Shown here: positions 7,671-35,265 of the stretch, piece after piece
How positions within the stretch are numbered: position 1 is the first letter of the stretch
Layout: each line of letters opens with the position of its first letter
Source: Haliotis rufescens
Lineage: Eukaryota
Direction: 5' to 3'
DNA length: 64,000 nucleotides
Assembly: GCF_023055435.1 (NCBI RefSeq)
Contig: NW_025963851.1
Span: 62,001 to 126,000, forward strand
The notes under the pieces: model-generated
The model's database searches: none
Told to the model about the DNA's origin: nothing
Seen by the model: the letters and a program-made list of their open reading frames with translations, nothing else
Made by a program: the position numbers and the translations under genes

Positions 7671-7975
7671 CCAATCAAACAGTTAAGTGAAAGACTGTAC
7701 AAAGGAGCGTTGAGCACAACGCACCAACTCATTTATGTAGGACGGAAAGTACAGAGGAACCCGCCTTGCTTTCAACATGTTTAAGTCACTTGTTCAGTGT
7801 TAAATATTCAGATGCATTTTACATGCATAATGATTGGTCACTACTAATGATAACTTATATTGTCATAACTATCAGATATCCAATATTCCACATCACACAA
7901 TACAAATTTATTAACATTCAATCACCAGTCCCTAAAATAAATGAATGATATTAAACAGTTATTCCTTTGTTTCAG

Positions 7976-8285
7976 ATGGCAGCCGCCAGAAAGCTGGAGA
8001 GTCTGAATGAGAACTTCTTGACCTGTTCCATATGTACGGAGGGATACAACGACCCCTGTACTCCTACCTGTGGACACACCTTCTGTAAGGGCTGCCTGGG
8101 GGAATTCCTGAATACCAGACAAGACGCCATCAGAGCCAAGTCCATCCCGTGTCCCTGCTGTCGTCAGATGACCCGAGTTCCAAGGCCTGACAGACCAGTG
8201 GAGGAGTGGGTGAAACAGATCAAGCCCAGTTTCCTCATGCAGGGACTTCTGGACACTCTAGCCTGTGGGGGAAATACTGATCATG
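7976..8285 (+). CDS. TRIM-A coding exon 1: C3HC4 RING domain of a TRIM (TRIM2/3/56-like architecture) E3 ubiquitin ligase
   Basis: TTTCAG|ATG; CSIC...CGHTFCKGC...CPCC; phase-1 donor G|GTAAGT at 8285/8286. Confidence 0.93.
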
Positions 8286-8329
8286 GTAAGTAAATGTGAT
8301 CTAGAAGAAACCGAAAGATGACAATATTC

Positions 8330-8580
8330 TTCCCAAGGGCGTAAGATCCCTGGCCGAAAGTTACCAAAAGAAGTAAAAGACGGTATTAGTTGTCACTCTG
8401 CCTGGTGCAGAGATGAAAAGGATAAAAGAGGGACTGATAGACTTTAAAGTCAGTAAACTGTGCGTGCGTGGGGTATCCATGTTAGACTCCACTATCTAAG
8501 TGAGCTGGTACTATAAAACAGGACCGCACGCACGTCGCGATATAAGTGCAATAAACTTGAAAGCGATGTTAAACGTCTAT
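8330..8580 (+). mobile_element. Old SINE family W copy in the TRIM intron
   Basis: Resembles the reverse complement of 21669-22022; equivalent copy at 39780-40065. Confidence 0.6.
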
Positions 8581-9047
8581 TCTAAATTACACTGTCGCCG
8601 ATTCAGTTTCAACTGAAACCAAGAACCCCAAGTAGAATATCTTATAGGAGATAGACTGTGACGCTGTCATACAGCAGGTTCGCTTTCCTGAATTACCGAG
8701 ATAATACCAAACCAGGTTCAGTCTATGCACGTTCATGCGTCATCAAAATGGTGATGGAAAACTGTTTATTGTAGATAAAAGTAATCAAGACGAAATTGAA
8801 GGGTCACCTATATTTATCAGGATTATCTAGAATACATCTTTGTCATTTCAGTTTTGAAATCTATGCATGTAGATTATCCCAGGGTACAGGAACTTTCCGG
8901 ACACTGTGTACGTTGAGGACAATGGTCAGAATTAACATTTACACTTTATTCTCCCTATGTACATTTATATCTTCCATCAAACGTTTTCTCATTATTGTGT
9001 TAAACATTGCACGGTTGATGTGACAGGTTTATCCATGACTTGTTCAG

Positions 9048-10738
9048 ATACAGAAAACCGCTGCCATCCCTGCCAGGACCTTGGAGAAAGTCATCCGGCC
9101 AACTCCTACTGTCAAGACTGTGATGTGCCGCTCTGTGAGAGATGTGTGAAGATGCATGCATCTCTTCCTAGTACGTCAAACCACGTGATTGCTGGCCTTG
9201 GTGGATCAGTGAAGGTGACCAGACGACAGAGGTGCACGGAACACAACGAAGTCATGGATTTCTGCTGCAAAGACTGTAATAAAGCAATATGTCCCAAGTG
9301 CTGTGTCATATACCACAGGAAATGCGACTCTGTGGTCACTATTCAGTCCATAATGTCTGAGATAAGAAGTGTTCTTACAAACAATAAGGGATTGCTTACA
9401 CTGAGCTTTGACGACACGGAAAGATCACTTCAACAACACAAATCACAGATTGATGAGATCAGCCACAACAAAGACAAAATACAGTCACAGATCAGACAGG
9501 CCTCACAGAAAGCCATGGACGTGATTAAACAGAAGGAGAAACAGCTGCTGGAGGAGCTGAATGAGATGACAGAGAAGCAGTCTGGACAACTGAGGGGGCG
9601 GATAAAGTCAGGGGAAATAGACATGCAGATGTATCAACAATACATAGAGTATCTCACCCAGGTGTTGAAGTCTGGGAGTGAGACTGACATGTTTGACATT
9701 TACCAGATGTGTCAGTCTGGGGCAATCAAGAAGGCAACAGACAGGGATGTCACTTTCACAGACAGTGTTCGTTATTCAAAACTTATATTTGTAAGTGAAA
9801 TAGATGAGAGGAAATTACACAAGGATGTACAACTTGGTAGAATTCAACAGAAGGTTTGTGACGTCATGGATACGCGACTTGGTAAAACACAGAGTGGCAC
9901 ATTTGACGTCATGTGCAGACCAGTGTTACACAAGACAGTCGGCATTAGGGTCGATGGCGACAGGAAGCAGCCGTGTCCATATGACGTCATAGTCCTGGTT
10001 GTCGACGGTGAAGAGACACTGGTGGTCACTGACTACAACAATACATGTCTGAAATCCTTCTACACTAAGAATAACAAATCACGACACAGTAAACTGGATC
10101 TTCCAAGTAAACCATACTCTGTGACGAGGCTGAGGGACAACCAGGTTGCTGTATCATTCTGGTCACACAATGAGATTGTAATAGTACGGGTGACCCCTGA
10201 CCTTGTACTACAGTCACGTGTCACAACAAAGAAGACGTACATGGGTCTGACAGCCTTGAGTCCTTCAACATTAGCAGCAGGTTGTAGGGGTCCTCCCTGT
10301 GTTGATATCCTGGATGTATCGGGGAGAGTGATGAGGTCAGTCAGTAGATTCAACTCTGGGGAGAACCTGATATGTAAGCCCTGCTTCCTCTGTGCTACAG
10401 ACAGGGGCAACATCCTGGTGTCAGATATTGACTCAGACTCAGTCTACTGTATCACACCAGAGGGAGATATTGTGTTCACCTGCACCCCTACAGGAGTGAG
10501 GAGACTGAGAAGACCACAAGGTATCACAACTACCAGCACAGGACACATCCTGGTGGCGGACTCCTGGGCACACAAGGTGGTACTACTGACACCAGCAGGG
10601 AAGTTTGTCACAGACCTGCTGACGTCACAGGATGGAATACGGTATCCATGCGGCTTGATGTTCTGTGATTGTAAACTGTATGTGGTGGAAGGCAATGGAG
10701 ATGCTGTGAAGGAATTGAGCTGCAGTATTCCCCAGTGA
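9048..10738 (+). CDS. TRIM-A coding exon 2: B-box1, B-box2, coiled coil, NHL/6-bladed beta-propeller (spliced protein about 666 aa)
   Basis: CHPC...YCQDC...LCERC...H...H; CTEH...FCCKDC...ICPKC...HRKC; heptad region; NHL-like blades (PQGITTTSTGHILVAD, PCFLCATDRGNILVSD); phase-1 acceptor TTCAG| at 9047 (alternatives 9026, 9053); TGA at 10738. Confidence 0.93.
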
Positions 10739-11039
10739 GACCCCAGGAAGCAAAACATACTCGGATCACGTCGCGGGGAATTTTTTATGATGAATATTCA
10801 GAAATACGCCCCAAATGAACAGTTTGTTTTGTGAAAAATACCCAAGACGCCAACCATATTTGAACATAGATTACAGTGAATGATTGAATATGATAATATG
10901 CAGCTTTTAGCCGTATTCGAGGAACGGGGGCACATTGACCAACCGAACCTGGGAAATCGGCAGGACGAGCCCATACACATGACAAGCACATAATGAATTA
11001 TTAGATTAGTTGTAGTGGCTATTTTCGGTTTGAATGTTG

Positions 11040-11225
11040 GGACAAGACAAGAATAAAGCAGGTAGTAGACGTTTACAACTTTGGAGAAACCCACGAGCAC
11101 GGAAACGGTGCTGACAAACCTAGAAACTTAATCAAGGCCAGTCTGGGATTCAAACCCACAACTGTAGGTGCCTATCACGTCTAAGGGACGCAATTACGCA
11201 ATCAAATCTCGGCGCCACAGGATAC
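11040..11225 (-). mobile_element. tRNA-derived SINE family Y (degenerate) just 3' of the TRIM-A stop
   Basis: Reverse-complement match to 32077-32351; counterpart at 42545-42735. Confidence 0.7.
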
Positions 11226-11711
11226 CACATACGTTCTGTGAGGCAACGGAATTTAACCCTGAATATTGTACTTACTCAAATAGCTACACGTTCACTTTCA
11301 TTATCCAGCAAGACCGTTTACTAGCGTTACTATCAGTAACTCTCGCTGATAATACTTTTACTGGTGCTTGAGACATCCACCTAAGTACTCTATAAACATT
11401 TAGCATGTATTTAATGACTTTAGAACATGTATGTATTTAATCATGTTTCAAGAAATGTCTCCTAAGCTTTACCAGACTGGATTTTGTACAGTTTTATTGT
11501 TTAAATATAATGTTATATTTATATTATGTACAATATGTGACACTTTCATATAATATATCTTATCTTATCTGTTCTTACATTTACTAATGCCTACACACTT
11601 CAGCAATTTGTAGACTGATAGGATAACCACTATCATTAATATGAAAGTCATATTTCATGTATATTGAATAAACTTTTCAGTGACATACGCATTTAAATGC
11701 TCCATCTGTGA

Positions 11712-11875
11712 GTTTGTTTGTTGTTTTACGCCGCACTCAGAAACATCGCAGCTATGTGACGGTGGTCTGTAAATACTCGAGTCTGGAGTCAGCGAGCCTG
11801 ACCACCCGATTCCTTAGGTCGCCCCTAACGGCAGGCATGCTGAAGACCAATTCTAACCAGGGATCTACACGGGGT
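11712..11875 (-). mobile_element. SINE-like repeat, family X
   Basis: Family X core; counterpart at 43160-43305. Confidence 0.7.
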
Positions 11876-12419
11876 TGATGAGCCCTTGATGAAGTCAAGT
11901 TTCACTTTTAACTTTGTACAATGTTTCTTCCATTGTTGTGTGTTTAGTCGCATATCTTCTCATCCATGAGCGCGCTTCGTAATTGAAATTCCATCTGAGA
12001 AAGTAAAGACACATGAATTATCTTCCTTTGACCACGAAGTAGTTGCTGCCAAATGTTCTTTGAGTGAGTGAGTGAGTTTGATTTTACGCCACTTTTAGCA
12101 ATATTCCAGCAATATCACGACGGGGGACACCAGAAATGGGCTTCACGCATAAATGTTCTTTGAAGCAACACATTTCATATATGTTTCCAGGATATAAAAG
12201 AAAAGGATCTTGATTATATATATGTTTGTTATCATCTTTTAACAAAACGTATTTGAACTGTGCTCTAGTTCCATTCACGACTTCGTTTGACAACAAAAGA
12301 AAGGCACTCTAATTGCAGAATTATGTTATACAGTAGTTAACGGGCTACCTGATATTGATCCTGTGAACCCGATGCTTCAATTCTTAATGACATTCACTCG
12401 TTACAGTTTTGACAAAACA

Positions 12420-12630
12420 AAAGGCAACTATGCTTGTCGTGGGAGGCGACTAACGGGATCGGGTGGTCAGGCTCACTGACTTGGTTGATGCATGTCATCG
12501 TATCCCAATTGTGTGGATCGATGCTCATGATGTCCATCCCTGGATTGTCTGCTCCAGACCCTATTATTTACAGACTTCCGTCATACAGCTGGAATATTGC
12601 TGAGTTGGGTGTTAAACAACAAACAAAACT
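12420..12630 (+). mobile_element. SINE-like repeat, family X
   Basis: Family X core; counterpart at 43752-43960. Confidence 0.8.
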
Positions 12631-13005
12631 CTAGTTTGTGGTGAGGGAGGGAGTCAGTCATGCTTGGTTATAATGGTGACTGAGTGTTACAACGTTTGAC
12701 ACTGATTGTGTGTCATTGCTGCCGTCATCGAAAGTCGAGTGCAAGCATTGCTGTTAATAGAGCCCATGACACATGTGGACCGGTGTTATTGCTGTCAGCC
12801 TGTGGTCTGCATGTCCCATATTCGACTGTTTGTATACAGGCTGATATCACTGAAATGTTGTTGACTGGGGGACGTCCATGTATCTCCATGTTCCCTCAGA
12901 GCTTCTCTGATGACCCCCGTTTGATGACCATACTTAATATATACACGTACAAGTACGAACAATGATATGGTGTTAAGTGTTGTTGTTTGTGGTCAAACAG
13001 ACATA

Positions 13006-14570
13006 TCAATGGCCGCTAGATACACTACTGCCCTGCTCACAACACATCCAATAGCCGCTAGATATATTACTGCCCTGCTCACATCACATCCAATAGCCTA
13101 CTAGACGCATTACTGCCCTTCTCACAACACATCCAATAGCCAACTAGATACATTACTGCCCTGCTCACAACACATCCAATATAGATACATTACAGCCCTT
13201 CTCACATGACATCCAATAGCCTACTAGGCACATTACGGCCCTGCTCACAACACATCCAATATAGATATATTACTGACCTACTCATAGCACATACAATAGC
13301 CTACTAGATACCTTTCAGCCCTGCTCACAACACATCCAATATAGATACATTACTGACCTACTCATAGCACATCCAATAGTCTACTAGATACATTACTGCC
13401 CTGCTCACAACACATCAAATATAGATACATTACTGACCTACTCATAGCACATCCAATAGTCTACTAGATACATTACTGCCCTGCTCATAGCACATCCAAT
13501 AGCCAACTAGATACATTACAGCCCTGCTCACAACACATCCAATATAGATACATTACTGCCCTGCTCATAGCACATCCAATAGTCTACTAGATACATTACA
13601 GCCCTGCTCACATCACATCCAATATAAATACATAACAGCCCTGCTCACAACACATCCAATAGCCTACTAGACACATTACTGCCCTGCTCACAACACATCC
13701 AATAGCCTACTAGACACATTACAGCCCTGCTCACAACACATCCAATAGCCTACTAGACACATTACTGCCCTGCTCACAACACATCCAATAGCCTACTAGA
13801 TATATTACTGCCCTGCTCACAACACATCCAATAGCCTACTAGACACATTATAGCCCTGCTCACAACACATCCAATAGCCTACTAGATACATTACAGCCCT
13901 GCTCACATCACATCCAATATAGATACATTACTGCCCTGCTCATAGCACATCCAATAGTCTACTAGATACATTACAGCCCTGCTGACATCACATCCAATAT
14001 AAATACATTACAGCCCTGCTCACATCACATCCAATAGCCTACTTGACACATTACAGCCCTGCTCACAACACATCCAATAGCCTACTAGATACATTACTGC
14101 CCTGCTCACAACACATCCAATAGCCTACTAGATACATTACTGCCCTGCTCACAACACATCCAATAGCCTACTAGACACATTATAGCCCTGCTCACAACAC
14201 ATCCAATAGCCTACTAGACACATTACAGCCCTGCTCACAACACATCCAATATCAATACATTACAGCCCTGCTCACATGACATCCAGTAGCCTACTAGGCA
14301 CATTACAGCCCTGCTCATAACACATCCAATAGAGATACATTACTGACCTACTCACAACACATCCAATAGCCTACTAGATACATTACTGACCTACTCACAA
14401 CACATCCAATAGCCTACTAGATACATTACTACCCTGCTCACAACAGATCCAACATAGATACATTACAGCCCTGCTCACAACATATCCAATATAGATACAT
14501 TACTGACCTACTGATAACACATCCAAAAGCCTACTAGATACATTACTGCCCTACTCACAACACATGCAAT
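13006..14570. repeat. Minisatellite, 43-bp unit with 36-bp variants
   Basis: CCAATAGCCTACTAGATACATTACTGCCCTGCTCACAACACAT repeated over about 1.55 kb. Confidence 0.97.
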
Positions 14571-14814
14571 GCCTGACATATCATGGGTATGCAATTGCAG
14601 ATATCAAGTGTCATCAAGAAATGTATTACAAAAATGTAAGAAGTTATAATCTTAAAGAAGAACAAAGCATGGTAATTGTAAAATAGAGTTGTCAAATAAT
14701 AACGCATAGTGCGTTTGACTTGAAACTGTTCCTCATTAAATAATAAATGAATGATTCTTCATAATATTAAAAAATGCGAGAGTGTGTTGTGCCTCGTCGC
14801 TGCATGTGTGTTAA

Positions 14815-14864
14815 GCATCAGCTTGATAACGGTGTGAGCATCGACATCGAAACGACGCTAATGC
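14815..14864 (+). ncRNA. Candidate minimal type I hammerhead ribozyme relic (C3U/G8A core)
   Basis: Helix I GCATCAGC/GCTAATGC, core TTGATAA, helix II GGTGT/ACATC, then GAAACGAC (U16.1 changed to A). Confidence 0.5.
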
Positions 14865-15480
14865 AATACACCAGGAGTGGATATCCAAAAGGTTGATCCA
14901 CGTTGAGGTGATACCACCGGCTAATGAGGAGTCGGTCGCAAATGTGAGAACACAGCGCCAACATCACTGGCAAAACCGTGCCAATATTGAAGGGGGGTCA
15001 TGTTAAAGAATACATCATTTTATTGTCCTTGGGTCATTTCTTTCACCTCTCGTAACAAACACATACAAGGCTTCGAACTATCTAAATAAAAACTTAAAGT
15101 TTTTTGTCACGGTGCTTCACCTCAATTTTACGTCAACGTATCATGAAGTGTATTACAACATTCAGAGAAGTCTCCACAGAGTGATGCATCTCAAAGTCTG
15201 CCCGCGTCTTGAGCCACACTACCTTATACATGCTGATATCAACCACTTGTAAACATCCGTGCCTACGTTCAGTGAATATACCAGTTCCTCATGGTTACCC
15301 CAGAACAACCCTCGAATCTTGCACTTTGTGACACATTCCTGACCAAACATATTCCAATATAAAAATGCAGAACCCTGGTGTGTGGAGGTCTGCATATGAC
15401 ATACAGTTCCCGTTACCAAACATCTCAGTTTATAAGAATTACATAAGTTCGGATTACGATCTAGCAAATACATAAAGTCT

Positions 15481-15598
15481 TCAGTCGACGTCTTCAACAA
15501 TCCAAGAACCGAACCACGTCAGCACCGACATCACCAGCATGACCACCACGACTGTTGACTCGCCCCTGCCACCACACCCACAAGTTACCGCCTTCTCC
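15481..15598 (-). CDS. HHIP-like copy A, last exon (hydrophobic C-terminal tail)
   Basis: TTTCAG|G then EKAVTCGCGGRGESTVVVVMLVMSVLTWFGSWIVEDVD*; phase 2 matches the preceding donor; AATAAA on the minus strand near 15020. Confidence 0.75.
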
Positions 15599-16253
15599 CT
15601 GAAACAGAACATCAGAAAATATCTACTGCTTGTAACTATGTGATATAATACTACCTATAGGGATAGGCCATTGATGCTCCGTGGATGGAGGTGAAGGGAT
15701 GGAGAAAGTGGAGGGTGGGTGGGGATGGGGGATGGGGGTGGTGGAACGATGGATGTAGAGGGGGATGGGGAGGGTTGGGTGCGGAGGGATGGGGACGGGG
15801 AGGGGGAGAGGCTTGTTATATTGTTCTGCAAATACTTGAAACAATACTTTGACCTCAGGGTTACACAAAAGACAGACAAACTGTTCACTGGATCCTGAAA
15901 CAAACATGGTGTGGTTCCTAAAACAGTTATCGGACCTTCAGCCGTTGAAGGCAGTGCTTGATCAACTGTTACCTGTAGCAATCAATGACAGTCATCCGAC
16001 GGCCTATGTTCATGAAGAGGTCGGAGTGTTACGACTACGCGCATCTGTATTTAATATATGAGATATCTGATATCGCCTGTCCTTGCTGAACGACGTCCGA
16101 TACGTCATCATCCAAGTACTATACGTCGTTATGGAGATCAGATACTCAAATATATATAAGTCGAGGGTGACACGGGTAGATTAAAACATTGCCGCACCAC
16201 ACAGACTAAGCCGCACAGAATGTTGTCCTGGCGAGATATTAGAAGGTACCCAC

Positions 16254-16335
16254 CCAAGTGATGACACTATTTTCAAAGCAACGCCGTCGTCTTTGAACGC
16301 CGTTATTGAAGACGTCGTCAAAAGGTACATCTCCC
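16254..16335 (-). CDS. HHIP-like copy A exon (GEMYLLTTSSITAFKDDGVALKIVSSLG)
   Basis: Resembles HHIPL GELY...GVVYKI; acceptor TTCTTCAG phase 1, donor GG|GTGGGT phase 2. Confidence 0.8.
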
Positions 16336-16444
16336 CTGAAGAAACACAGAATGTCAATCTGTCAGTTTGGAAACAGACAAACACGTTTATTTCAGTATAC
16401 TCGGCATTTGGTGATGAATAAAGACTTAACCCTCGGGATCTAAC

Positions 16445-16576
16445 CTTGTTCATCTTGACCAAAGGTCAGTATGAAGTTTCTAGGTCGCGCCCTGGCACCG
16501 CACGGACAATTTTTTCAGGCACGGAAGCGGGGACGATGTCCAGCCGTCGCTGCCCTCGGTCAATGCCGACATGACT
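16445..16576 (-). pseudogene. HHIP-like copy A exon with a +1 frameshift in an A6 run
   Basis: VMSALTEGSDGWTSSPLPCLK / NCPCGARARPRNFILTFGQDEQG; 132 nt where the flanking phases need 131; T6 at 16510-16515. Confidence 0.8.
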
Positions 16577-16778
16577 CTGAAAACAGACAGAGATGCAGGA
16601 AAGGTCGCAGAGACAGATATAGATTCAGACACAGATGCAAATATACGCGAACATAGATTCAGACACGGACGCAGACACAGACACGCATAAAGGTATGTAT
16701 CTCTTCCTAAATGGTTGGAATCATGGATTACAAGGAAGAACAGACTGATGGGTGATCACAATGCAAATATCACAGCCA

Positions 16779-17797
16779 CCTTCAAGTGGTACGGGTGACC
16801 TCCTACAAGTGGTACGGGTGACCTCCTTCAAATGGTACGGGTGACCTCCTACAAGTGACACGGGTGACCTCCTTCAAGTGGTATGGGTGACGTCCTTCAA
16901 GTGATACGGGTGACGTCCTTCAAGTGATACGGGTGACCTCCTTCAAGTGATACGGGTGACCTCCTTCAAGTGGTATGGGTGACGTCCTTCAAGTGGTATG
17001 GATGACCTCCTTCAAGTGATACGGGTGACCTCCTACAAGTGACACGGGTGACCTCCTTCAAGTGGTATGGGTGACGTCCTTCAAGTGATACGGGTGACGT
17101 CCTTCAAGTGATACGGGTGACCTCCTTCAAGTGATACGGGTGACCTCCTTCAAGTGATACGGATGACGTCCTTCAAGTGATACGGGTGACCTCCTTCAAG
17201 TGGTATGGGTGACCTCCTTCAAGTGGTACGGGTGACCTCCTTCAAGTGGTATGGGTGACCTCCTTCAAGTGGTACGGGTGACATCCTTCAAGTGGTACGG
17301 GTGACCTCCTTCAAGTGGTACGGGTGACCTCCTTCAAGTGGTACGTATGACTTCCTTCAAGTGGTACGGGTGACTTACTTCAAGTGGTACGGGTGACCTC
17401 CTTCAAGTGATACGGGTGACATCCTTCAAGTGGTATGGGTGATCTCCTTCAAGTGATACGGGTGACCTCGTTCAAGTGATACGGGTGACCTCCTTCAAGT
17501 GATACGGGTGACTTCCTTCAAGTGATACGGGTGACCTCCTTCAAGTGATACGGGTGACCTCCTTCAAGTGATACGGGTGATCTCCTTCTAGTGATACGGG
17601 TGACCTCCTTCAAGTGATACGGGTGACCTCTTTCAAGTGATACGGGTGACCTCCTTGAAGTGGCACGGGTGACCTCCTTAAAATGTTACGTATGACTTCC
17701 TTCAAGTGGTACGGGTGACTTCCTTCAGGTGGTACAGGTGATCTCCTTCAAGTGGTAGGGGGGACCTCCTACAAGTGGTACGGATGACCTCCTTCAC
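16779..17797. repeat. Minisatellite, 23-bp unit, in an HHIPL intron
   Basis: GTGATACGGGTGACCTCCTTCAA about 44 times; one unit remains in copy B (46981-47000). Confidence 0.97.
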
Positions 17798-17880
17798 ATA
17801 ATCCGAGTGAACTGATCCAAGTTTCCCGTGGTGCCTCCATGTAAGATGAGCTTTCGGGCCACACACCTGCATTTACTCAC

Positions 17881-18013
17881 CCTGTCATGGCGTCTCCGTA
17901 CAGATAGCGCCCGTACAGATCAGGAAGCTTCTTGCCTCTGTACACATATCCCCCGACGACGGCATGAAAGAGGTTGGTGTGATTGTACACGTAGATCGGC
18001 AGTGCTTCGTTCT
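17881..18013 (-). CDS. HHIP-like copy A exon (ENEALPIYVYNH...VVGGYVYRGKKLPDLYGRYLYGDAMTG)
   Basis: GGYVYRG...G.Y..GD motif of the HHIPL/GSDH propeller; CAG| phase 1, |GTGAGT phase 2. Confidence 0.9.
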
Positions 18014-18069
18014 CTGTAATCACAAGTTTACAGAATGTTGTCTTTTTCCAAACAGAATTGGAATGGCCC

Positions 18070-18345
18070 CCATCTTTACCGGAAGCACACAGATCACCCA
18101 CACAACCCCACCCTACCCCACCCGAAACAAAATATGATCAAGTCTTTACCCGAAGCACACAAACCACCCATTCCACCCCACCTCACCCCGAACAAAATAT
18201 GATCGAGTCTTTACCCGAAGCACACAGACCACCCACTCAACCAACCCTCACCCCGAACAAAATATGATCGAGTCTTTACCCGAAGCACACAGACCACCCA
18301 CTCCACCCCGCCTCACCCTGAATAAAACATGATCGAGTCTTTACC
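18070..18345. repeat. Minisatellite, 65-bp unit, about 4 copies
   Basis: ATGATCGAGTCTTTACCCGAAGCACACAGACC... at 18199 and 18264. Confidence 0.85.
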
Positions 18346-18839
18346 TTAAAAACTGGCAAGCAAAACATACAAAATATTCTCCAAAGACTAAATATTGTAA
18401 TGATAATTGTGGATATCTGACTGACAGGTTGCCTAGGTTCTACCCTTGCCAGATCAACGCCACTTTTCTTAGCTCCACCCTGGCGCCACCTCGCGAAGAT
18501 CACGAGCTGTGCCCCTTGTAATGAAAACTCGATATCCAATCAGATCGCTGTTCTTATCTCGTAGAGCATCACAAAGATGGCTAGTCGATCAGATAACGAA
18601 AACATTCGTGATTTCGTCCCTGACACAAAAAAACCCCATAGGCAATCGCTGGGGGGTTTAACATATGAAAAAGACGTGTCAACAAAGACAGGCAGCGGCA
18701 AATCACTACATACGAAGGTGTACCAGTCGTGGAAGTTGATTTTGTAAAACGTTCTCTGATTGGACTGTCGATTTGTGCGATGGTCCAACCACATTTAGCA
18801 CAGGAAATTGGGCTTGATGTGGTAAGAGTGGAAACAAGA

Positions 18840-19045
18840 CATTGATAAAAAGGCTGGTAGACGCTCTTGCCTCGGGAAGGTGCGTATACACCGAGTAGAA
18901 CAGTAATTGTGTTATATCCCTAATGCCAGGCAGGACAACATCAAGTATCATCGTTAACGTCTGTCGGTATGACGCGGAGGGAATCGAACCACCGACCTTC
19001 CACTCTCCGGGCAGACTCTAGTCACACCAAGGAGGCAGTCTCGTG
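18840..19045 (-). mobile_element. tRNA-derived SINE (family W-like)
   Basis: Minus-strand B box GGTTCGATTCCC; head similar to 21940-22022. Confidence 0.65.
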
Positions 19046-19080
19046 AAATGTTGACGGTGAGAGAGACGAAGGCTACCTAC

Positions 19081-19224
19081 CTATTGTTCCATTGCTGCAC
19101 TTGGAGCTGTCGAAGCACTCGTTCCCCTCCTTGATGTTCCAGCCGTAGTTCCTGCCGCTGCGGATGACGTCGATCTCTTCATAAGCTCGCGCCCCTGGGT
19201 CGCCACAGAATATTCGCCGCTCAC
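19081..19224 (-). CDS. HHIP-like copy A exon (GERRIFCGDPGARAYEEIDVIRSGRNYGWNIKEGNECFDSSKCSNGTI)
   Basis: RIFCGD.G...EE.D....G.NYGW...EG..C motif of HHIPL1/2; phase 1 at both ends. Confidence 0.92.
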   Translation of the reverse strand: MSGEYSVATQGRELMKRSTSSAAAGTTAGTSRRGTSASTAPSAAMEQ

Positions 19225-19299
19225 CTGCGAGAAGGGAAAGTGACGTGACATGTTGATTCAGGAAGTGACTCGCGATATCACCAAGGGCGGATCCAGCAT

Positions 19300-19480
19300 T
19301 TGTATTTGTTTGTTTGTTTGTATATTCCACCTTTATGATCGCCGACTGTAAATAATCGAGTCTGGATCAGACAATCCAGTGATTGACATCATACGCATCG
19401 ATCAACGCAATTGGAATACGATAACATGCATCAACCAAATCAGAGAGCCTGGCCTCCGATCCCGTTAGTCGCCTCTGGAC
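19300..19480 (-). mobile_element. SINE-like repeat, family X
   Basis: Family X core; counterpart at 47545-47750. Confidence 0.75.
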
Positions 19481-19517
19481 CAGACAACGAGAGAGGATGT
19501 CTACAACATACATAATA

Positions 19518-20150
19518 GAGCACAGGTGTGCGTCCCTGTACCTCGCTGACACACCCGGGCAAACTAGGGTACAGGTGTGCGTCCCTGTACCTCGCTGACA
19601 CTCCCGGACAAACTAGGGCACAGGTGTGCGTCCCTGTACCTCACTGACACGCCCGGGCAAACTAGGGCACAGGTGTGCGTCCCTGTACCTCGTTGACACT
19701 CCCGGGAAACTAGGGCACAGGTGTGCGTCCCTGTACCTCGCTGACACACCCGGGCAAACTAGGGTACAGGTGTGCGTCCCTGTACCTCGCTGACACTCCC
19801 GGACAAACTAGGGCACAGGTGTGCGTCCCTGTACCTCACTGACACGCCCGGGCAAACTAGGGCACAGGTGTGCGTCCCTGTACCTCGTTGACACTCCCGG
19901 GAAACTAGGGCACAGGTGTGCGTCCCTGTACCTCGCTGACACCCCAGGGAAACTAGGGCACAGGTGTGCGTCCCTGGACCTCGCTGACACCCAAGGGAAA
20001 CTAGGGCACAAGTGTGCGTCCCTGTACCTCGCTGACACCCAAGGGACACTAGGGCACAGGTCTGCGTCCCTGTACATCACTGAAACCCCCGGACAAACTA
20101 GGGTACAGGTCAACGTCCCTGTGCCTCACTGACACCCCGGGCTAAGCTAT
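19518..20150. repeat. Minisatellite, 49-bp unit, about 13 copies, with one 195-bp four-unit duplication
   Basis: GGGCACAGGTGTGCGTCCCTGTACCTCGCTGACACACCCGGGCAAACTA; GGGTACA variant at 19567 and 19762. Confidence 0.95.
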
Positions 20151-20270
20151 GGGGCAGATTGGCGGTGTCATGTTTCGTGCTGCACGTGTTGACTGTGATT
20201 GTCACGGTGAATGGGTGAATGGTGTTTCACCAATAATTCACCAATATGAAGGCGGCCTGTTCACACTCCT

Positions 20271-20593
20271 TGAGTGAGTGAGTGAGTGAGTGAGTGAGTG
20301 AGTGAGTGAGTGAGTGAGTGAGTGAGTGAGTTGGGTTTAACGTCGCTTTTAACATTATTCCAGATAATGGACAGCGTGTCTTAATGTGGGAGGAAAGCCC
20401 GAAGTGATGCAGTGATGCAGGACGTTTACCACTTCGGTGAAACCCACGAGCACGGGTATGGTGTTGTCAAACCGAGAAACAATCGTGGCGAACCGGGATT
20501 AAAATCCACAATTACAGGTTTCTGGCGCGCCCAAGGGATGCAACTCTGCACAGCGAATCGCGGCGCCTTAAGGCAGATGAGCCCCTTGCCCCC
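20271..20593 (-). mobile_element. tRNA-derived SINE family Y with an expanded (ACTC)n tail
   Basis: (GAGT)n at 20271-20330, then reverse-complement family Y body. Confidence 0.85.
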
Positions 20594-21330
20594 CATTCCT
20601 CCCCGTAAAGCAAGCTTGACAACACCTCCTAAAGGGATCATCAGGATCCGGTAATACGTGGACAGGGTTCTATTCTAGGTCTGGTGCTGGAATATGCTAT
20701 CTACAGTTTCATTTCTGTTAACGTTAATCCAAAGGTGAAGTAACCCTTATGTACGTTCTTCTAACGTGACTTTTAATATAATTATATAACTATTTGAGGA
20801 AAACGTCTTTACACACTACCCAGAACATGATGAAGCAATCAAATAGACACCTCCACTTAACCAACGACCTTCACAGTGACCTCAACCGTACCCGTGAGTT
20901 CAAGGCCCTTCATCGGGATAACACATGACAATAACTATAAAGGTGACCTTGACCTTTTATGTGCAAGACTGATAGGTTTAAAGTATGGCCTCTGTACAGG
21001 AAATGTTTCGCAAAAATAATAGAATTTATCGTTCTCTAAAATCGTAACAACTTTAAAGGTAAGTTTTGGAAACAGGTGACCTTGACATTGACCTCCTAAA
21101 AGCTGTTAACAATATCCATGCTAGAATATCCTGAAATATCATCACGCTCGTACTGCAGTCTAATTGATGTTCAATTAGTAGAATTTCTTGCTTAATGAAA
21201 ACAGACCAGGCGGGTATCTCTGATCACGACGGCTTTGATACATGGCTATAGCTCTGGCAGCCATTCTTCAATGACCCGACAGCAATAAACACCTCGCCAC
21301 CTGCAGTTCTCACATCGGAGACTTCACACC

Positions 21331-21660
21331 GTGTGATGGAGAGTCGCGGAGAACACTTGTGATCGCGGAAACAGAGACACATGGCATGGCTCTGGTGTGA
21401 AGGAGAGTCGTGGAGAACACTTGTGATCGTGGAAACAGAGACACATGACATGGCTCTGGTGTGATGGAGAGTCGCGGAGAACACTTGTGATCGCGGAAAC
21501 AGAGACACATGACATGGCTCTGGTGTGATGGAGAGTCGTGGAGAACACTTGTGATCGCGGAAACAGAGACACATGACATGGCTCTGGTGTGTTGGAGAGT
21601 CGTGGAGAACACTTGTGATCGCGGAAACAGAGACACATGGCATGGCTCTGGTGTGATGGA
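21331..21660. repeat. Minisatellite, 64-bp unit, 5 copies (single unit in copy B at 48173-48243)
   Basis: GTGTGATGGAGAGTCGCGGAGAACACTTGTGATCGCGGAAACAGAGACACATGGCATGGCTCTG. Confidence 0.95.
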
Positions 21661-21668
21661 ACTGGAAA

Positions 21669-22022
21669 TGGGTGGTGGTGGTGAAATGGAGTTCAACGTC
21701 GCGTCCAGATTATTGCACTCATATAGCGACATGCATGCACGTGTGTGTGTGTATGTGTGTATGTGTGTGTGTGTGTGTGACTGCTTGTACTAGTTCGGAC
21801 TGATGCCAATTTATAGTGCTGAGATACCATCTCACTGAGATACCATTCCGCAGTTTAACATGAATACCCCACTCAGACACAGTATACTGAAACCGAGCCG
21901 CTAAATCCTGGTTTTACAACAAGTACCATCTTTTAACGTCTTGGTATCACGCGGCCGGGAATCGAACCCCGGACCTTCCGCTCTCCGGGCAGACGCTCTA
22001 CAACTAGACCACGGAGGCGGTC
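21669..22022 (-). mobile_element. Full-length tRNA-derived SINE family W with a 12-bp TSD, absent from copy B
   Basis: TSD TGGAACTGGAAA at 21657-21668 and 22023-22034; A box TGGTCTAGTTG, B box GGTTCGATTCCC; (CAC)n tail; empty site near 48243. Confidence 0.9.
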
Positions 22023-22079
22023 TGGAACTGGAAACGGACACTATGGGCGTCTACTAAATCACAGAATCAGTAAATAAGC

Positions 22080-22310
22080 TGGTTGTTTGCTTGTTTGTAG
22101 TTTAACGCCGAGCTCAGCAATATTCCCGCTATATGACGGCGGTCTGTAAATAATCGAGTCCGAACCCAACCATCCAGTGATTGATATCATGAGCATCTAT
22201 CTACGCAGTTGTGATACGTTGACATACATCAACCAATTTAGCGAGCCTGACCACCCGATCCCGTTAGTTGCCTCTTACCAAGACCTATTCTAACCCTGAT
22301 CTTCACGGGT
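22080..22310 (-). mobile_element. SINE-like repeat, family X
   Basis: Family X core; counterpart at 48298-48530. Confidence 0.8.
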
Positions 22311-23099
22311 CGGGAGACAAGGAAGGTTATCATGTTACTTTGTTGAATGGAGACGTGCGTATGTGGAGCAGATGAAAGTTATAATCGTGGAGAATATACA
22401 CAGATATAGACTGTCTGTTATAATATGTATGGTATATTCACATCTCCCTGTATTCAATGTTGAATAGACGTGTGCTTTTATTCATTCATCACTATCACCA
22501 TGGCAACTTCACAGACGGAGATCAGATAATGCCGGTGACACCTTGTCAGTTTATGATATGCATTTATCTGCATATGTATACAGCGTACATACATTGTCTA
22601 TAAAATAATAGTGAGTCTGTGTTCACCGCTTTCTGGTGTTCCCCACAGTTCACTGTGATGTTTCTAATAACAGACTGTGCTACAAAGTTGTGATCCCGAA
22701 TAGTGTCATGATTGTGTCATGATTGTGTTTTGATTGTGCGTCAGACAATCCAGTGATTGACAGTCAGTGGGTTGGACTTTTTGACGCTTTAACCACTATT
22801 CCAGCAATATCGCGGAGATCTCTCATCATGATGACGTAGAGTCACCCAGGTGACACATTGTGACCACGTGATCATGTGTGGGTCTTTAGGCGGCACCACT
22901 CTGTGGCACTACATTTTCAAAGAGCATTACTAAAACATGATGAAAAAGGTTGATTTTCCTACCATGCGCGACTAACGGGATCGGGTGGTCAGGTTCGGTG
23001 ACTGGTTGGTGCATGTCATCGTATCCCAATTGCGTGGATCGATGTTTATGATGCTAATCACTGGATTGTCTGACCCACAATCAAGGCCCGAGGCCCGAG

Positions 23100-24230
23100 G
23101 AATTACAATCCCCAAAGTCCACTGTTCTGGAAAATACGTCTTTTCAAACATAACGTTAAAAAGGATTTAATGGTAGGGGAGGAGAATTTCGGACGAATAT
23201 TTAAAAAATTCAGGAATCAGATTATCTTCACCAGCTGCTTTATTGCTTTTTAAGTTTGCGATGCTTTCTGAAATTTCTTTTCTTGTTTTAGGTGAAACAA
23301 GAATATCTGAAGCTAAAAAGAGTTATCAAATGCATTCGATTCGTCGATATCAAAACATTTTTCCTCGTTCTCTGTAGAAGTTGAAAACAGACCCCTGAAA
23401 TGGTTAAACCAATCATCAATTGGAATATTGTTTTGTGTATAACGATTAGTATTTAGCCCTTTAAGAGTGGCCCAAAATTGTTTAGAATCACGTATTCAAT
23501 GTTAAAGTTTTTCCGGCTTCTCTTTTAAAACATTCCTTTTCTTTTCTCTACATACACTATTATATTTATTTCTAATATAATTATACTCATGTAATGAGTT
23601 ATTATCCTTTTTATCTCCTAAAATTGTTTAAATATATACATCTTTCTTTTTTGAATAGCTCACATTCACGGTGAAACCACTGTTAACTAGATGTGTTAGA
23701 AGTACACACTCTTTTCATGTCGCTTGCTGCCGTGCAGAAGGCCTTTGACATGTATCTAACACTTTCGTCTAAATTGTGTAACACCTCGTCAACAGCCTTT
23801 CCTAATAAAGAGTAGCATTCACTGGTCAACAAGTTAAACATATATTGGTCAGCTTTATCATTGACCCAAACGAATTTGGAAGCCTTCTTATTACCATGAG
23901 CTTGCACGGGTTCAGTCTGCACAGAAGTATGTAAGCTAGCCATGACAGGAAGATGACAGGATTCCGTGCGTGATACAATGTTGAAATTACAGCATACGTC
24001 AAACAACCCAGATGAACAGATTATGTAATCTATCACGCTAGCACCTTGATTGCCAATAAACGTACAGTCTCCAACTTCTGAGTCTGACCCACATCTTCCA
24101 TTCATGATATGTATATTTAATATACTGCATAAATTTATCAAACTTTTTCCAAAGTTGTTTAACACATTATCTGCTGACGCTCGTACCATGTTAAAATGGT
24201 CGAGTAGAAAACTATACACTGAAGAATTAT
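23100..24230 (-). mobile_element. Degenerate LINE ORF2 fragment (APE endonuclease C-terminus to RT N-terminus; clade not resolved)
   Basis: NNFGKSL...IMNGR...CTFI...SVIDYII...ESCHLPV, then SKQFWATLK and LKSNKAAGEDNLIPEFFK...FPEQWTLGIVIP, with stops and frameshifts. Confidence 0.88.
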
Positions 24231-24454
24231 AATTTTCTAAATATCAAAGAATACATACCTGTTGATGAGTGATCAGGTGATATTTGGGATATTTTTCATT
24301 TTCATCATGGATTGTCCTTTAAGCTCAAATTATTTCATTATTCGAAAACCAAAATTATGTTCTCCAGTTCTTAACCAAATCAGCTGATGGATATGAATAA
24401 GACATGCGACTGGGGTGAGGGAGTTTCTATGTACCGCTCTATCTGCTGTTCCAG

Positions 24455-24762
24455 TATGTGGCTTCACCCGCGCCATCGACCTGGTGTACCTCGTGGAGGC
24501 CAGCACTCAAACCTTCTCTCTATGGAACGACGTCCTCAACTTCCTCATTGGCGCCTCCGACACCTTCCCCGTCAGCGTGGTCACATTTGGTCAGCAGACG
24601 GTGTCCCAGGTCCGGTTCAACAGCTACACTACCAAGATAGAGCTGTTCACATCCATCCACAATCTCCAGCCTCGGAGAGGGCCTGCTGATCTCGCAACGG
24701 TCCTGCAGGATGTGGACTCCGTGTTTCCAGGTGCCCGCAGAGGAAGACCTGAAGCCAAAAAG
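24455..24762 (+). CDS. Orphan von Willebrand factor A (VWA) domain exon, collagen/matrilin-like
   Basis: TTCCAG| then C...IDLVYLVEAST...VSVVTFG...F.SY.TK.EL...I.NL...G.RPEAKK|GT; open frame, degenerate MIDAS; no partner exons found in the window. Confidence 0.75.
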
Positions 24763-25571
24763 GTCGCAAGTCCTTGTCATGGCGCAGATGATAACACGAT
24801 ATCTTTTGGTCATTGGTGTTTTGGATAGCTGTCTGTCATGTTAGGTGACAGTAGAGAGTGTTTTCAGCGGCAGAAAATGTTTGAAGGGCGAGTAAAATGC
24901 CAGGACATGCTTGATCGTTCTCCAGTTTTGGGATGGGAACGCTTCTGGAAGGCCAATGTCTGAAAACACCGAATTCCAGCCTCTTATTATTAGGTGGTTT
25001 AATGATATGTGAGGGAGTGAGTTAAAATTTTACATCGCATCGGCAATATTGCGGCCCTATTGCGATTATAATGAAATGTTGTCTTGCATTCTGACGGCAT
25101 GTCTAAATTCTTGTTTTACAGGTAAGATTATATTTTACGAGTATCCCACCATATACTGTAGAATCAGTGGTAGTAATATGTGTATCACGAAGCTATGCCC
25201 CTTGCGTTTTGCTTTGGTGAACACAATTATTGAGCTTGTTGATGAATTACACGTTAGGTGCCACCCTTAGGCATATGTATGTACAATATCAAAGGGACCT
25301 TTGTAAGCCTCTCGGTGATGCGCCCACAAGAGTAGAAACGTCACCCTGCACGACTGTAGGAATACCCATACTTATGCACGAAGGCCACATTGTGGTTGTC
25401 CGAGGGCTGTAATTAGATCATTGATAAAATAAGAAAAAACAAGCAGAGATTTCACTACCTTGGCTAACACCTTATTGAATCGTATATCCGTCTGGCTGTT
25501 CCCCCTAGTAAGAAATATAATCCTAAGTGTTTGTATAACAAAGTTGTAGTAGTTGCCCTGTTTTACCTCTG

Positions 25572-25844
25572 GGGGGACGGGTGGCCCAGTCTAAGGCGCC
25601 GCGATTCGCTGTGCAGAGTTGCGTCCCTTGGGCACGAAAGAAACCTATGATTGTGGGTTCGAATCACGGTTCGACAGGTTTGTCAGCACTATACCCGTGC
25701 TCGTGAGTTTCACCGAGGTGGTAAACGTCTAACACCTGCACCACGTGGGGCTTTCCTCCCACATTAAGCTGACACGCCGTGATATAACTGAAATACTCGC
25801 TCACTCACTCACTAACTCACCCAAAACCCAACTCACTCACTCAC
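25572..25844 (+). mobile_element. tRNA-derived SINE family Y
   Basis: GGTGGCCCAGTCTAAGGCGCC head, B box GGTTCGAATC, (ACTC)n tail. Confidence 0.88.
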
Positions 25845-26185
25845 TGTATTACCTTTCATGCTCTGTATTACCTCTTATGCCCTGTATTACCTATCATGCC
25901 CTGTATTACCTCTAATGCCCTGTATTACCTATCATGCCCTGTATTACCTCTAATGCCCTGTATTTCCTATCATGCCCTGTATTACCTCTAATGCCCTGTA
26001 TTACCTCTAATGCCCTGTATTTCCTATCATGCCCTGTATTACCTCTAATGCCCTGTATTACCTCTAATGCCCTGTATTTCCTATCATGCCCTGTATTACA
26101 TCTAATGCCCTGTATTACCTCTGATGCCCTGTACTACCTCTAATGCCCTGTACTACCTCTAATGCCATGTATTACCTCTAATGCT
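25845..26185. repeat. Minisatellite, 19-bp unit
   Basis: ATGCCCTGTATTACCTCTA. Confidence 0.95.
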
Positions 26186-27674
26186 TGCCTTTTACCACGA
26201 ATTACGAAAGCCATAAACTGCACGAGCATTTTGTTTTACTGTTTTCATGCATGACATTTTTTAACAAGTGTGAAAACAATGCCGTTTATCACTTTCAATC
26301 ACTTTCAAATATTAATTATACCAGGTGTTCTCGAGAAGGTGAACGTATCCTGCCCCACAGGTGGCACCCGTCTGTTACAAAGTTAATTGTAATAACGTGA
26401 TAAATTGTAATAAACTACGGAAAATGTTATAACACTGTAGTAAAATGTAATACTGTGGTAAACTGTAATAAAACCTGCTGTAAATTGTTATGACTGCACT
26501 GTGGTAAATTGTTATAAAAACTGCGGCAAATTGTAATTACATCTCTCATTCCTTCAGGCTCCAAACATAATTCGAGTTCCATGGTTTGTTCGACCAAAGC
26601 ATGAGCAGTTCCAACCTCCAGCGAGTTTAACATGTTTAAGGAAAAAGAAAGCGATTTTGTTTAAATTTTGGTGATATCATGTGTGTGTGTCTGTGCCTGT
26701 AAAATAAGTCTAATTATTTCGAATGCTTCAATATATGAAACGAAATTCACGAAGTGTAGACTAGAGCAGTTTTGATTTTATTGTAATAAACACGCAAACA
26801 AATCAATCACAGGACCAAAAGCCAGATTTGACATCATTGGAACAAGCTCAAATAAGTAGACAATGCATGCAATGACAGGAATTGCATATGATTCCCAATA
26901 TGAACTTATTTTGGGCGTTTATTTTATATGAAGCTATACTTTTGAAACATATGATCATCGTGGATTGCTGTATGTACAAGCACCATTGTCATGAATAGTA
27001 CGACACCATATGTAAAAACATAGACCATCTAGAAAATATATACATAAGACATAATGCATCAGATAACAAAATGTTTCTTGGCTTAATAAGAAGAGGAACG
27101 ATCAATCAAGCAGGTCACTATCAGCAGTGTTGTGTACTGACCAGTGCTGACCATAATAATAATTTGCATGGCTATGCACTGCGGCCGCTGGACAATAGAA
27201 TTCATGGAGTGCGATGGGTTTGATGGATACATAGTAAATCATTTTTTGCATAAATCTACATTCTTCAAGGTAAAGAAAAGTTATGTAGAAATAGTGGTCC
27301 TGCAAACAGACACAGTCTTACATGTAGTTTATGTGAGCTTATTAAGCACCCTGAAATGATTCACATGCATGTCTACTTGAAGTACACGTTACATGCACGA
27401 GCGTTGGTTGATGTTCTAAGCCTCACGAAGAAGTAATTGCATATAACTGTTGTGGACACTACACAAGTCATATAGGTGTATCCACTAAACCATCCTCCAA
27501 AACAACACTCGAACCTTGCACTTTGTGCCACATTCCTGACCAAACATATTCCAATATTAGAATACAGAACCTTGATGTCTCCAAGTCCGATTATACTATT
27601 ACCACATTATAATATTACCAAACGTCTCCATTTAAGAAGCATTTATATTCAAATCTAGCAAATAGAACGAGTCT

Positions 27675-27767
27675 TCAGTCAACGTCTTCAACACTCCAGG
27701 AGTCGTACCACGTCAGCACCGATCGCGACATTATCAGAGCGACCACCACGACTCTGAAACCTTTTCC
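27675..27767 (-). pseudogene. Last exon of a diverged HHIPL paralog, internally deleted
   Basis: Homologous to 15481-15598; flanking intron and 3' UTR homology spans about 27490-28055. Confidence 0.7.
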
Positions 27768-30259: not shown

Positions 30260-30790
30260 TGTATTCAAGCCTCCCCCACTATAACACACATACGTTATGT
30301 AAGCCTTCCCCCAAAACATACGTACGTTATGCAAGCCTTCCCACTTTAATTTATCACCCGTATGTTATGCAAGCCTCTCTCACTATATCACACTTACAGT
30401 ATTCAAGCCTCTCCCACTATAACACACATACGTTATGCAAGCCTCTCCCACTATAACACACATACCGTATTCAAGCCTCTCCCACTATAACACACATACG
30501 TTATGCAAGCCTCTCCCACTATAACACACATACCGTATTCAAGCCTCCCCCACAATAACACACATACCGTAATCAAGCCTCCCCCACTATAACACACATA
30601 CTGTATTCAAGCCTCCACCACTAAAACACGCATACTGTATTCAAGCCTCCAACACGATAACACACATACTGTATTCAAGCCTCTCCCACTATAACACGTA
30701 TACCGTATTCAAGCCTCCCCCACAATAACATACATACCGTATTCAAGGCTCCCCTGCTATAACACACATTCGTTATGCAAGTTTCTCCCA
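30260..30790. repeat. Minisatellite, 34-bp unit
   Basis: GTATTCAAGCCTCTCCCACTATAACACACATACC. Confidence 0.93.
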
Positions 30791-30846
30791 TTCCGAGTTC
30801 GAACTTAACCCCAGCAACCCGTGATTGTCGTACGAGGCGATTTTAT

Positions 30847-31130
30847 GGATCAGGTGGTCAGGTTCGGTGACTTAATAGAACGGGTGGTCAGGTTCGGTGA
30901 CTAAATAGATCGGGTGATCAGGCTCGGTGAGTAAATAGATCGGGTCGTCTGGTTCAGTGACTAAATAGATCGGGCAGTCAGGCTCAGTTACTAAATAGAT
31001 CGGGTGGTCAGACTCGGTGACTTAATAGATCAGGTGGTCAGGCTCGGTGACTAAATAGATCAGGTGGTCAGGTTCGGTGACTAAATAGATCGGGTGGTCA
31101 GGCGCGGTGACTAAATAGATCGGGTGATCT
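30847..31130. repeat. Minisatellite, 30-bp unit derived from the family X core
   Basis: TAGATCGGGTGGTCAGGCTCGGTGACTAAA, about 9 copies, following a family X 5' segment. Confidence 0.93.
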
Positions 31131-31574: not shown

Positions 31575-31711
31575 TGTCATATGACCCAACATCACCAGTT
31601 TGTCCTGAACCTGAGATGACATATTTTGACTTGTTTCTGAGCTTATCAACAAACCTCTCCCAGCCCGCATTACGTCTCCACCGAGAGACGGTGTCAGGAC
31701 ACAAGGTGAGT
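31575..31711 (+). promoter_or_regulatory. Putative TRIM promoter/non-coding first exon, diverged paralog (donor AAG|GTGAGT at 31705/31706)
   Basis: Homologous to 5250-5399. Confidence 0.55.
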
Positions 31712-35120: not shown

Positions 35121-35121
35121 T

Positions 35122-35205: not shown

Positions 35206-35265
35206 TCACAGTGAGATATATGCTTCCAATAAGTCTCATCTGTATATATGCCTTCGTACAATATA

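Follow-up and report, generated by a model that had tools for sequence, protein, structure and literature searches.

Why do two neighbouring copies of one abalone gene differ so unevenly along their length, and does the pattern reflect selection on a recognition surface? The window, i.e. the whole stretch of 64,000 nucleotides of red abalone (Haliotis rufescens) DNA that was analysed (contig NW_025963851.1, positions 62,001 to 126,000), contains two tandem copies of a RING-B-box-coiled-coil-NHL (TRIM) gene, of which copy A is intact and copy B is frameshifted before the propeller. An earlier note on this DNA had described amino-acid differences recurring on one face of the propeller and had proposed diversifying selection, by analogy with the variable loops of antiviral TRIM B30.2 domains.

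Copy A encodes an intact TRIM-NHL protein

7976..8285, plus strand: copy A exon 1, with the start codon and a C3HC4 RING finger (Cys17 to Cys62 at 8024-8161)
8286..9047, plus strand: copy A intron, 762 nt, GT..AG
9048..9913, plus strand: 5' part of copy A exon 2, with two B-boxes, a predicted coiled coil and a linker; paralogue dN/dS ~0.68
9914..10738, plus strand: copy A NHL-type beta-propeller, six blades, 274 aa and the stop codon

A single spliced frame of 666 aa spans all domains, and its product matches XP_048253167.1, a red-abalone RefSeq entry annotated 'wech-like', at every residue; the database names given to the family (wech-like, TRIM56-like, TRIM71-like) are automatic and mutually discordant. 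All eight ligands of the RING are present, and Pfam recognizes zf-RING_UBOX (43.6 bits, cut-off 25.2), zf-C3HC4 (30.1 bits, over the cut-off), zf-B_box in two stretches (26.4 bits, cut-off 24.1) and NHL (38.6 bits, cut-off 20), while the coiled-coil part reaches an E value of 0.0036 with PML_CC but only 17.2 bits, under the cut-off of 23. The C-terminal six-bladed NHL propeller places copy A in class VII (subfamily C) of the TRIM proteins; Pfam and the structural model identify this domain as NHL and not as the B30.2/PRY-SPRY domain of class IV. No filamin domain, the TRIM2/3/71-type feature between coiled coil and NHL, was detected in exon 2 by Pfam at E values up to 0.5. Some TRIM-NHL proteins likewise have none.

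The exon joint across the 762-nt intron is found in contigs of two of three probable RNA runs and is absent from the DNA run, where the RNA label is a guess and contig depth is unfit for ranking genes. The intron-skipping contigs carry other letters and thus demonstrate splicing for the family, not for copy A in particular. An alternative splice acceptor lies within 9027-9047, 21 bases upstream, and would append seven residues to copy A; isoforms of 666 and 673 aa listed for paralogues fit such an acceptor.

In its RING, copy A carries Asn25, Pro30 and Cys61 (window positions 8050, 8063-8065 and 8157), the corresponding residues of copy B and of the black-abalone protein P0001 being Lys, Leu and Tyr. 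The X10 and X1 contigs over these sites show the other letters. The Leu30Pro replacement falls on what we take to be a usually conserved RING position and may lower the putative ligase activity of copy A.

Copy B lies in the second unit of a tandem duplication

7682..36559: unit 1 of a tandem segmental duplication, with copy A; aligned blocks 84-94% identical to the partner
39129-60356: partner unit, with copy B
39438..39747, plus strand: copy B exon 1 (RING)
40535..42224, plus strand: copy B exon 2, with a net one-base loss near 41369

Both units of the duplication begin with the two-exon TRIM gene. The frame of copy B would stop at 41538, giving 437 aa and no propeller. At the lesion (41368-41377) ten bases are swapped for a nine-base copy of neighbouring sequence, and replacement by an adjacent copy is atypical of read errors. 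As the propeller frame behind the frameshift (41370-42224, 284 codons) remains open, the loss is likely recent. Across 41150-41600 the contigs of four runs show paralogue-like forms, with indels relative to copy B at the frameshift site; copy B's own form occurs in no listed contig of these runs, and contigs lose rare variants. The predicted product, a RING-B-box-coiled-coil protein without propeller, could serve as a heterodimer decoy.

Besides the TRIM genes, both units contain an exon-like frame (19073-19366 and 47318-47602, minus strand) that resembles a glucose/sorbosone dehydrogenase or HHIP-like propeller. The plus-strand frame at 24397-24828 resembles a von Willebrand A domain exon, and no aligned block of the second unit contains an equivalent. 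Frames at 34500-36065, 37647-38188 and 59448-60607 resemble Tc1/mariner transposase remnants and the frame at 23683-24243 a LINE endonuclease region. Minisatellite arrays of differing periods occupy 4198-4845, 13001-14574, 16776-17822, 19510-20152, 58111-58674 and 60567-61326.

Differences between the copies map to the predicted top face

Using AlphaFold2 with a 60-row alignment we obtained a six-bladed model of the copy A propeller (pLDDT 93.5, pTM 0.91). Its best fold matches are TRIM71 (Z 31.2, rmsd 2.7 over 255 aligned residues), LIN41 (Z 31.1) and TRIM2 (Z 30.9), at a structural identity to TRIM-NHL matches of 17-18%. The top face of NHL propellers is defined as the b-c and d-a loops (PMC4015489, excerpt). 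We set top, bottom and strand classes from the secondary structure of the model, counting the first three residues of strand a as top, so that the assignment is a topological and not a distance-based mapping. Within the top face, about 24 register positions can be named: P-1 and P+1 flank the blade-start proline, and D+1 and D+2 follow the strand-b aspartate.

9944..9985, plus strand: d-a loop into blade 1, top face; register sites 9974 and 9980
10034..10045, plus strand: b-c loop of blade 1, top face; M8 posterior 0.97 at 10034
10100..10120, plus strand: d-a loop into blade 2, top face; register sites 10109 and 10115
10160..10171, plus strand: b-c loop of blade 2, top face
10226..10246, plus strand: d-a loop into blade 3, top face (TYMG/EYKC); posterior 0.93 at 10241
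10286..10297, plus strand: b-c loop of blade 3, top face (CRG/CWN)
10343..10387, plus strand: d-a loop into blade 4, top face (ICKPC/MRYPS); posterior 0.99 at 10376 and 10382
10427..10438, plus strand: b-c loop of blade 4, top face (DIDSD/DDGSH)
10484..10522, plus strand: d-a loop into blade 5, top face (LRRPQ/LSGPR); posterior 0.97 at 10517
10562..10573, plus strand: b-c loop of blade 5, top face
10622..10654, plus strand: d-a loop into blade 6, top face (IRYPC/LQDPY)
10691..10702, plus strand: b-c loop of blade 6, top face (EGN/ETS); posterior 0.99 at 10691

The by-eye counts of the earlier note are reproduced: copies A and B differ at 11/103 positions in the RING exon, 27/278 in the B-box/coiled-coil part and 38/169 in 10229-10735 (38/168 in the note). 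In the spliced reading frames the linker and blades 1-2 contribute 11/113, and the last region stands out against the rest (Fisher p=7e-5). All seven motif pairs that had been noticed recur in register, and all lie in d-a and b-c loops, i.e. on the predicted top face, where A and B differ at 15 of the 16 register sites of blades 3-6. By class, differences amount to 32/91 at the top, 1/37 in bottom loops, 16/141 in strands and 0/5 in the tail, so that the top compares with 17/183 at the remaining propeller positions. No random set of 91 codons matched the 32 differences in 100,000 draws; among 273 circular shifts of the mask, 32 was equalled only by a one-residue shift, from which this control is unable to separate the mask. 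Two details of the earlier description do not hold in full: changes called often multi-nucleotide are so in only 5 of 38 changed codons, and the strand cores, described as nearly identical, differ at 10 of 75 positions in blades 3-6, about the background rate.

The ratio of nonsynonymous to synonymous A/B changes is 52.5:35.5 up to the last region and 43:5 within it (p=2e-4). The pairwise dN/dS of 2.9 in this region rests on only five synonymous differences and owes much to a low synonymous distance (5/123 sites vs 35.5/313, p=0.017). A raised synonymous divergence had been named as the mark of a conversion tract; since the distance drops there instead, conversion from a distant donor is ruled out as the cause of the contrast. 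The nonsynonymous distance of the last region (pN 0.112) is not above the A/B intron distance (0.145), which is surpassed solely by the top face of blades 3-6 (0.22, p=0.025, or p=0.21 counting each codon once). From the A/B pair alone the case for selection is thus modest, the intron not being clearly beaten. B's residue occurs in some intact paralogue at 26 of the 32 top differences, which argues against decay after the frameshift.

Codon models detect selection on the top face among paralogues

Thirty family loci were retrieved from the genome for analysis. Exon 2 is intact in nine of the 15 closest loci, the other six being deleted, truncated or broken; site models of the close paralogues used exon 2 of seven intact loci, with L013 and L014 excluded as more distant. 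The codon models were written by us in Python and are not those of PAML (GY94, F3x4, M0 branch lengths, naive empirical Bayes). For the seven loci the likelihood ratio statistics (2dL) are 37.5 for M2a v M1a, 40.4 for M8 v M7 and 37.3 for M8 v M8a, with 13.5% of sites at a dN/dS of 4.1. Seven of eight propeller sites with a posterior above 0.9 are top-face sites, and the N-terminal part adds two. With fixed classes dN/dS is 0.68 in the N-terminal part, 0.63 in strands, 0.69 in bottom loops and 2.42 at the top (p=5e-10), the last value becoming 1.81 when the top is given its own synonymous rate (p=0.011). Eleven loci without A and B yield 2.44, or 1.80 with a free synonymous rate (p=4e-17 and 6e-4, respectively). 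The whole gene is weakly constrained, with a background dN/dS of 0.6-0.7, and blades 1-2 also bear a selection signal across the family (dN/dS 1.8-2.1).

The top-face signal stands when each of three segments is given its own tree, when the model permits double and triple mutations and in a count that uses no tree, and it remains at non-CpG columns. First and second codon positions of the top diverge by 0.174, compared to 0.104 for the intron (bootstrap p=0.0006), and in most sets the top face has a synonymous rate 1.2-1.5 times that of the background. A second clade on another contig, 51-55% identical to A, has a top dN/dS of 3.66 (seven loci), and for nine of its loci M8 v M8a gives a 2dL of 156 with 16 of 18 sites above 0.95 located on the top. 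With a free synonymous rate this clade gives 1.24 for 12 loci (p=0.14) and p=0.46 for a three-locus subgroup, neither being significant. At the register sites dN/dS rises to 6.3 and 5.8 in the close-clade sets and to 13.2 in the second clade, which is the fairer test as the register class was chosen after inspecting the close clade. Top positions outside the register show 1.3-1.9, and in the intact set the remaining 67 top positions are near neutral (1.32, 2dL 2.2).

Selection has almost certainly acted on the predicted top face of the propeller. The diversifying selection proposed earlier is thus supported, with dN/dS above 1 at the sites in question, and by the secondary-structure mapping these sit in the d-a and b-c loops that make up the top face.

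The family is large, unstable and mosaic

The red-abalone genome encodes at least 141 related propellers (141 of 428 candidates were scored and 141/141 matched). Trees of the N-terminal part and of blades 3-6 conflict (AU p <0.01), indicating a mosaic history of the family genes, and choosing orthologues by N-terminal identity leads to partners unlike those chosen by the propeller, as expected for mosaic genes. The N-terminal half of exon 2 in copy A (9048-9913) is nearest to L009 (synonymous distance 0.04-0.05) and its propeller groups with L002 and L003; copy A is itself likely a recombinant gene.

Several loci show rearrangements. At L002:993-1454, 3' of the stop codon, four tandem copies of the gene's last 27 codons follow each other at 127 bases. 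Because of these gene-end copies the 3' flank (0.227 among paralogues) was discarded as a neutral yardstick. In L004 and L006 large in-frame deletions take most of the coiled coil and retain the propeller; no top face observed is more basic than that of L004 (+12). A feature search with P0002 returned clusters in which Mollusca, Brachiopoda and Echinodermata are the most frequent phyla, which serves as a lead only.

Faces differ among paralogues and are retained in clear orthologues

The black-abalone counterpart of copy A, P0001, differs from it at 4/87 top and 10/158 other propeller positions, and it has A's residue at all 27 of the 27 top-face A/B differences compared in blades 3-6. Among 26 black-abalone propellers, nine have a reciprocal red partner picked on non-top sites with a margin >0.05, in a comparison made at the protein level only, with a sample that is incomplete and shaped by 90% clustering. 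None of these nine unambiguous pairs has an excess of top-face change (top 27/773, non-top 63/1422, register 6/198; summed, 3.5% at the top vs 4.4% elsewhere), and none shows the fast surface change between orthologues that is typical of TRIM5. Two further matches, to A and L009, have small margins. One lineage retains its face in three species, differing by 9-10% at the top and 9-18% at non-top positions. Retention is not general, since 15 of the 26 black-abalone propellers have no red partner with a matching face in the incomplete red sample, and at least one of the 15, P0206, resembles an L002/L003 counterpart whose face has been altered.

Nearest paralogues within the red abalone, at a non-top distance of 3-6%, show an average difference of 27% at the top and 49% in the register (18 pairs). 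In the sharpest pair, P0036 and P0039, the difference is 3.9% outside the top, 40% at the top and 90% in the register. The comparison suggests that duplication may be followed by a burst of face change, after which some lineages keep their face and others turn over. For the retained copies, conservation between species speaks against an ongoing arms race, and the family likely resembles a repertoire more than a TRIM5 arms race.

What the propellers may recognize

The family is probably an inherited repertoire of intracellular sensors, mainly protein-binding and directed at foreign targets. It expands in tandem, and positive selection has diversified the predicted top face at some four sites in every blade; each propeller would recognize a foreign target of its own, protein more likely than RNA. 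By what is typical of TRIM proteins, the coiled coil would dimerise and present two propellers, and the RING would ubiquitinate the bound target. The binding face of a duplicate would change in a burst and then be kept or lost, and the pattern of change suggests that the targets would be pathogen-derived; the family may have an antiviral role.

The position of the selected sites bears on the ligand. For zebrafish LIN41, 14 RNA-contact residues are given (PMC5908797, excerpt). On the abalone registers 13 of these 14 fall at P-1, P+1, D+1 and D+2 and the 14th at P-2, the LIN41 numbering being inferred by motif transfer (residue types and spacing vs a TRIM71 chain aligned to A). Thus, the selected sites are the known contact sites of the NHL fold. 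Across 29 loci the register residues are made up of Tyr (13%), Ser (12%), Asn (9%), Arg (9%) and Trp (8%), with Gly also frequent. Antibody paratopes have a similar make-up.

We consider it unlikely that the family is instead a set of RNA readers, each copy specific for the sequence or shape of a different RNA from a virus or transposon, in the way that Brat and LIN41 read mRNAs, for which KRAB zinc-finger arrays would be the evolutionary analogy. The coincidence of selected and LIN41 RNA-contact registers is what such readers predict, change after duplication followed by retention would suit them, and the charge has the right polarity, with bottom loops acidic in 44/44 rows and tops neutral to basic (+6 in copy A, +12 at most). 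TRIM56's NHL-like domain moreover binds Zika RNA (PMC13236048, excerpt). The register residues, however, are only 13% Lys/Arg and 8% acidic in the 29 loci, compared to 8 basic contacts out of 14 in LIN41, the net charge of the top loops varies between -3 and +12, with 10 of 18 loci at 0 or 1, and other NHL domains bind proteins or substrates by the same face (PMC4015489, excerpt). The conserved basic top-face pocket of LIN41/TRIM71-type RNA readers was not found in the abalone register sites and charges; their make-up and variable charge are unlike it.

It is improbable that the proteins are adaptors for host substrates, specialised after duplication for development, gametes, shell or stress and with no role against pathogens. 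The lack of top-face excess in all nine red/black pairs and the face held constant over three species would fit such adaptors, but the copy number is high, 6 of the 15 closest loci are broken and dN/dS at the contact sites reaches 6-13. Such values, high copy number and frequent loss are commoner in host-parasite genes. Very improbable is a face that acts not as a sensor but as the target of pathogen antagonists and is selected for escape, as proposed for TRIM21 and TRIM25 (PMC3845644, excerpt): escape predicts change between orthologues, whereas the clear orthologues are static, and it leaves more than 141 copies with differing faces unexplained. That relaxed surface loops, gene conversion and multi-nucleotide mutation together imitate selection could draw on the conflicting segment trees, the uneven A/B synonymous distance and the elevated top-face synonymous rate, but is scarcely credible and largely refuted by bottom loops that stay at 0.6-0.7, by a signal that outlasts segment trees, the multi-nucleotide model, the tree-free count and restriction to non-CpG columns, by a top rate above the intron rate, by the second clade with its signal at identical registers, and by B residues shared with intact paralogues.

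Returning to the sensor repertoire, we extend it tentatively, and with slightly more doubt than belief, to a general proposal: abalones, and probably other marine invertebrates, may possess a germline-encoded, antibody-like arsenal of well over 100 ubiquitin ligases acting inside the cell. Each duplication would rewrite the 24-position propeller paratope, which recombination would shuffle onto other RBCC scaffolds and which would then persist through speciation. The arsenal would be a standing stock of pathogen sensors and destroyers built on the NHL fold and not on B30.2. To our knowledge molluscs have no antibodies. If the proposal is true, a large selected NHL repertoire is a candidate for specific intracellular recognition in a farmed, disease-threatened group. 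The 24 register positions make the idea that the face determines the target directly testable, and the retention of faces across species implies that part of the targets are ancient and unchanging, which leaves fewer candidates to look for.

Comparison with known systems

Previously described TRIM-NHL proteins form a small, conserved group of RNA regulators. TRIM71/LIN41, TRIM2/3, TRIM32, Brat and the NHL-like TRIM56 share domain order and fold (Z ~31) with the abalone family (PMC5908797, PMC4015489, PMC9634614, PMC13236048, all in excerpt), and the variable positions in abalone are the ligand-contact registers of LIN41. The known TRIM-NHLs are few and conserved, with three in flies and five in mammals (PMC4015489, excerpt), compared to at least 141 related propellers in the red abalone; the abalone family also differs from them in that no filamin domain was detected and the basic RNA pocket is not conserved. 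In the excerpted screen of PMC3845644 the two selected sites of TRIM2 lie outside known domains, NHL repeats included. Antiviral TRIM56 requires its NHL-like domain (PMC13236048, excerpt).

The clustered expansion with a selected recognition surface that characterizes class IV TRIMs is seen in the abalone family. Closest in this respect are the teleost finTRIMs, which likewise form clusters, in which the RING/B-box part is the more uniform and the C-terminal recognition domain is selected among paralogues; their recognition domain is B30.2 and not an NHL propeller, and they were discovered as virus-induced transcripts (PMC2657112, excerpt). Primate TRIM5alpha and the class IV restriction factors share the RBCC ligase and selected sites in the C-terminal target-binding domain (PMC3845644, excerpt), but TRIM5alpha is selected among orthologues, while abalone faces change among paralogues and are retained in clear orthologue pairs. 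The B30.2 analogy of the earlier note therefore fits the paralogue arrays of fish finTRIMs well and TRIM5 less.

Fungi offer a second parallel. The HNWD (HET-e/HET-d) NLRs of Podospora also combine a beta-propeller with four diversifying positions per repeat on the interaction face and exchange among family members, but carry their WD40 domain with near-identical internal repeats on a NACHT receptor and trigger cell death, whereas in abalone a RING ligase bears the propeller, whose six NHL blades are diverged (PMC4986451, excerpt).

Among molluscs, 22 RING plus B-box genes are given for Aplysia (PMC9334734, excerpt) and oyster TRIM-annotated genes are among herpesvirus-survival candidates, with the domain type not stated in the excerpt (PMC9437489). 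TRIMs also appear among primed antiviral families, without domain detail in the excerpted text (PMC7064767). We found no selected TRIM-NHL expansion in molluscs in titles and abstract openings, with most subscription papers outside this search.

Birth and death of ligase components has a precedent. Nematode and plant F-box and MATH-BTB ligase adaptors are said, in work by Thomas from 2006, to form birth-death arrays with selected substrate-binding domains, reportedly with stable members alongside unstable ones as in the abalone family. F-box and MATH-BTB proteins are cullin adaptors, whereas the abalone proteins are single-chain TRIM ligases. To these systems the abalone locus adds a gastropod case with an intact RING, a match to the LIN41 registers and retention of the face across species.
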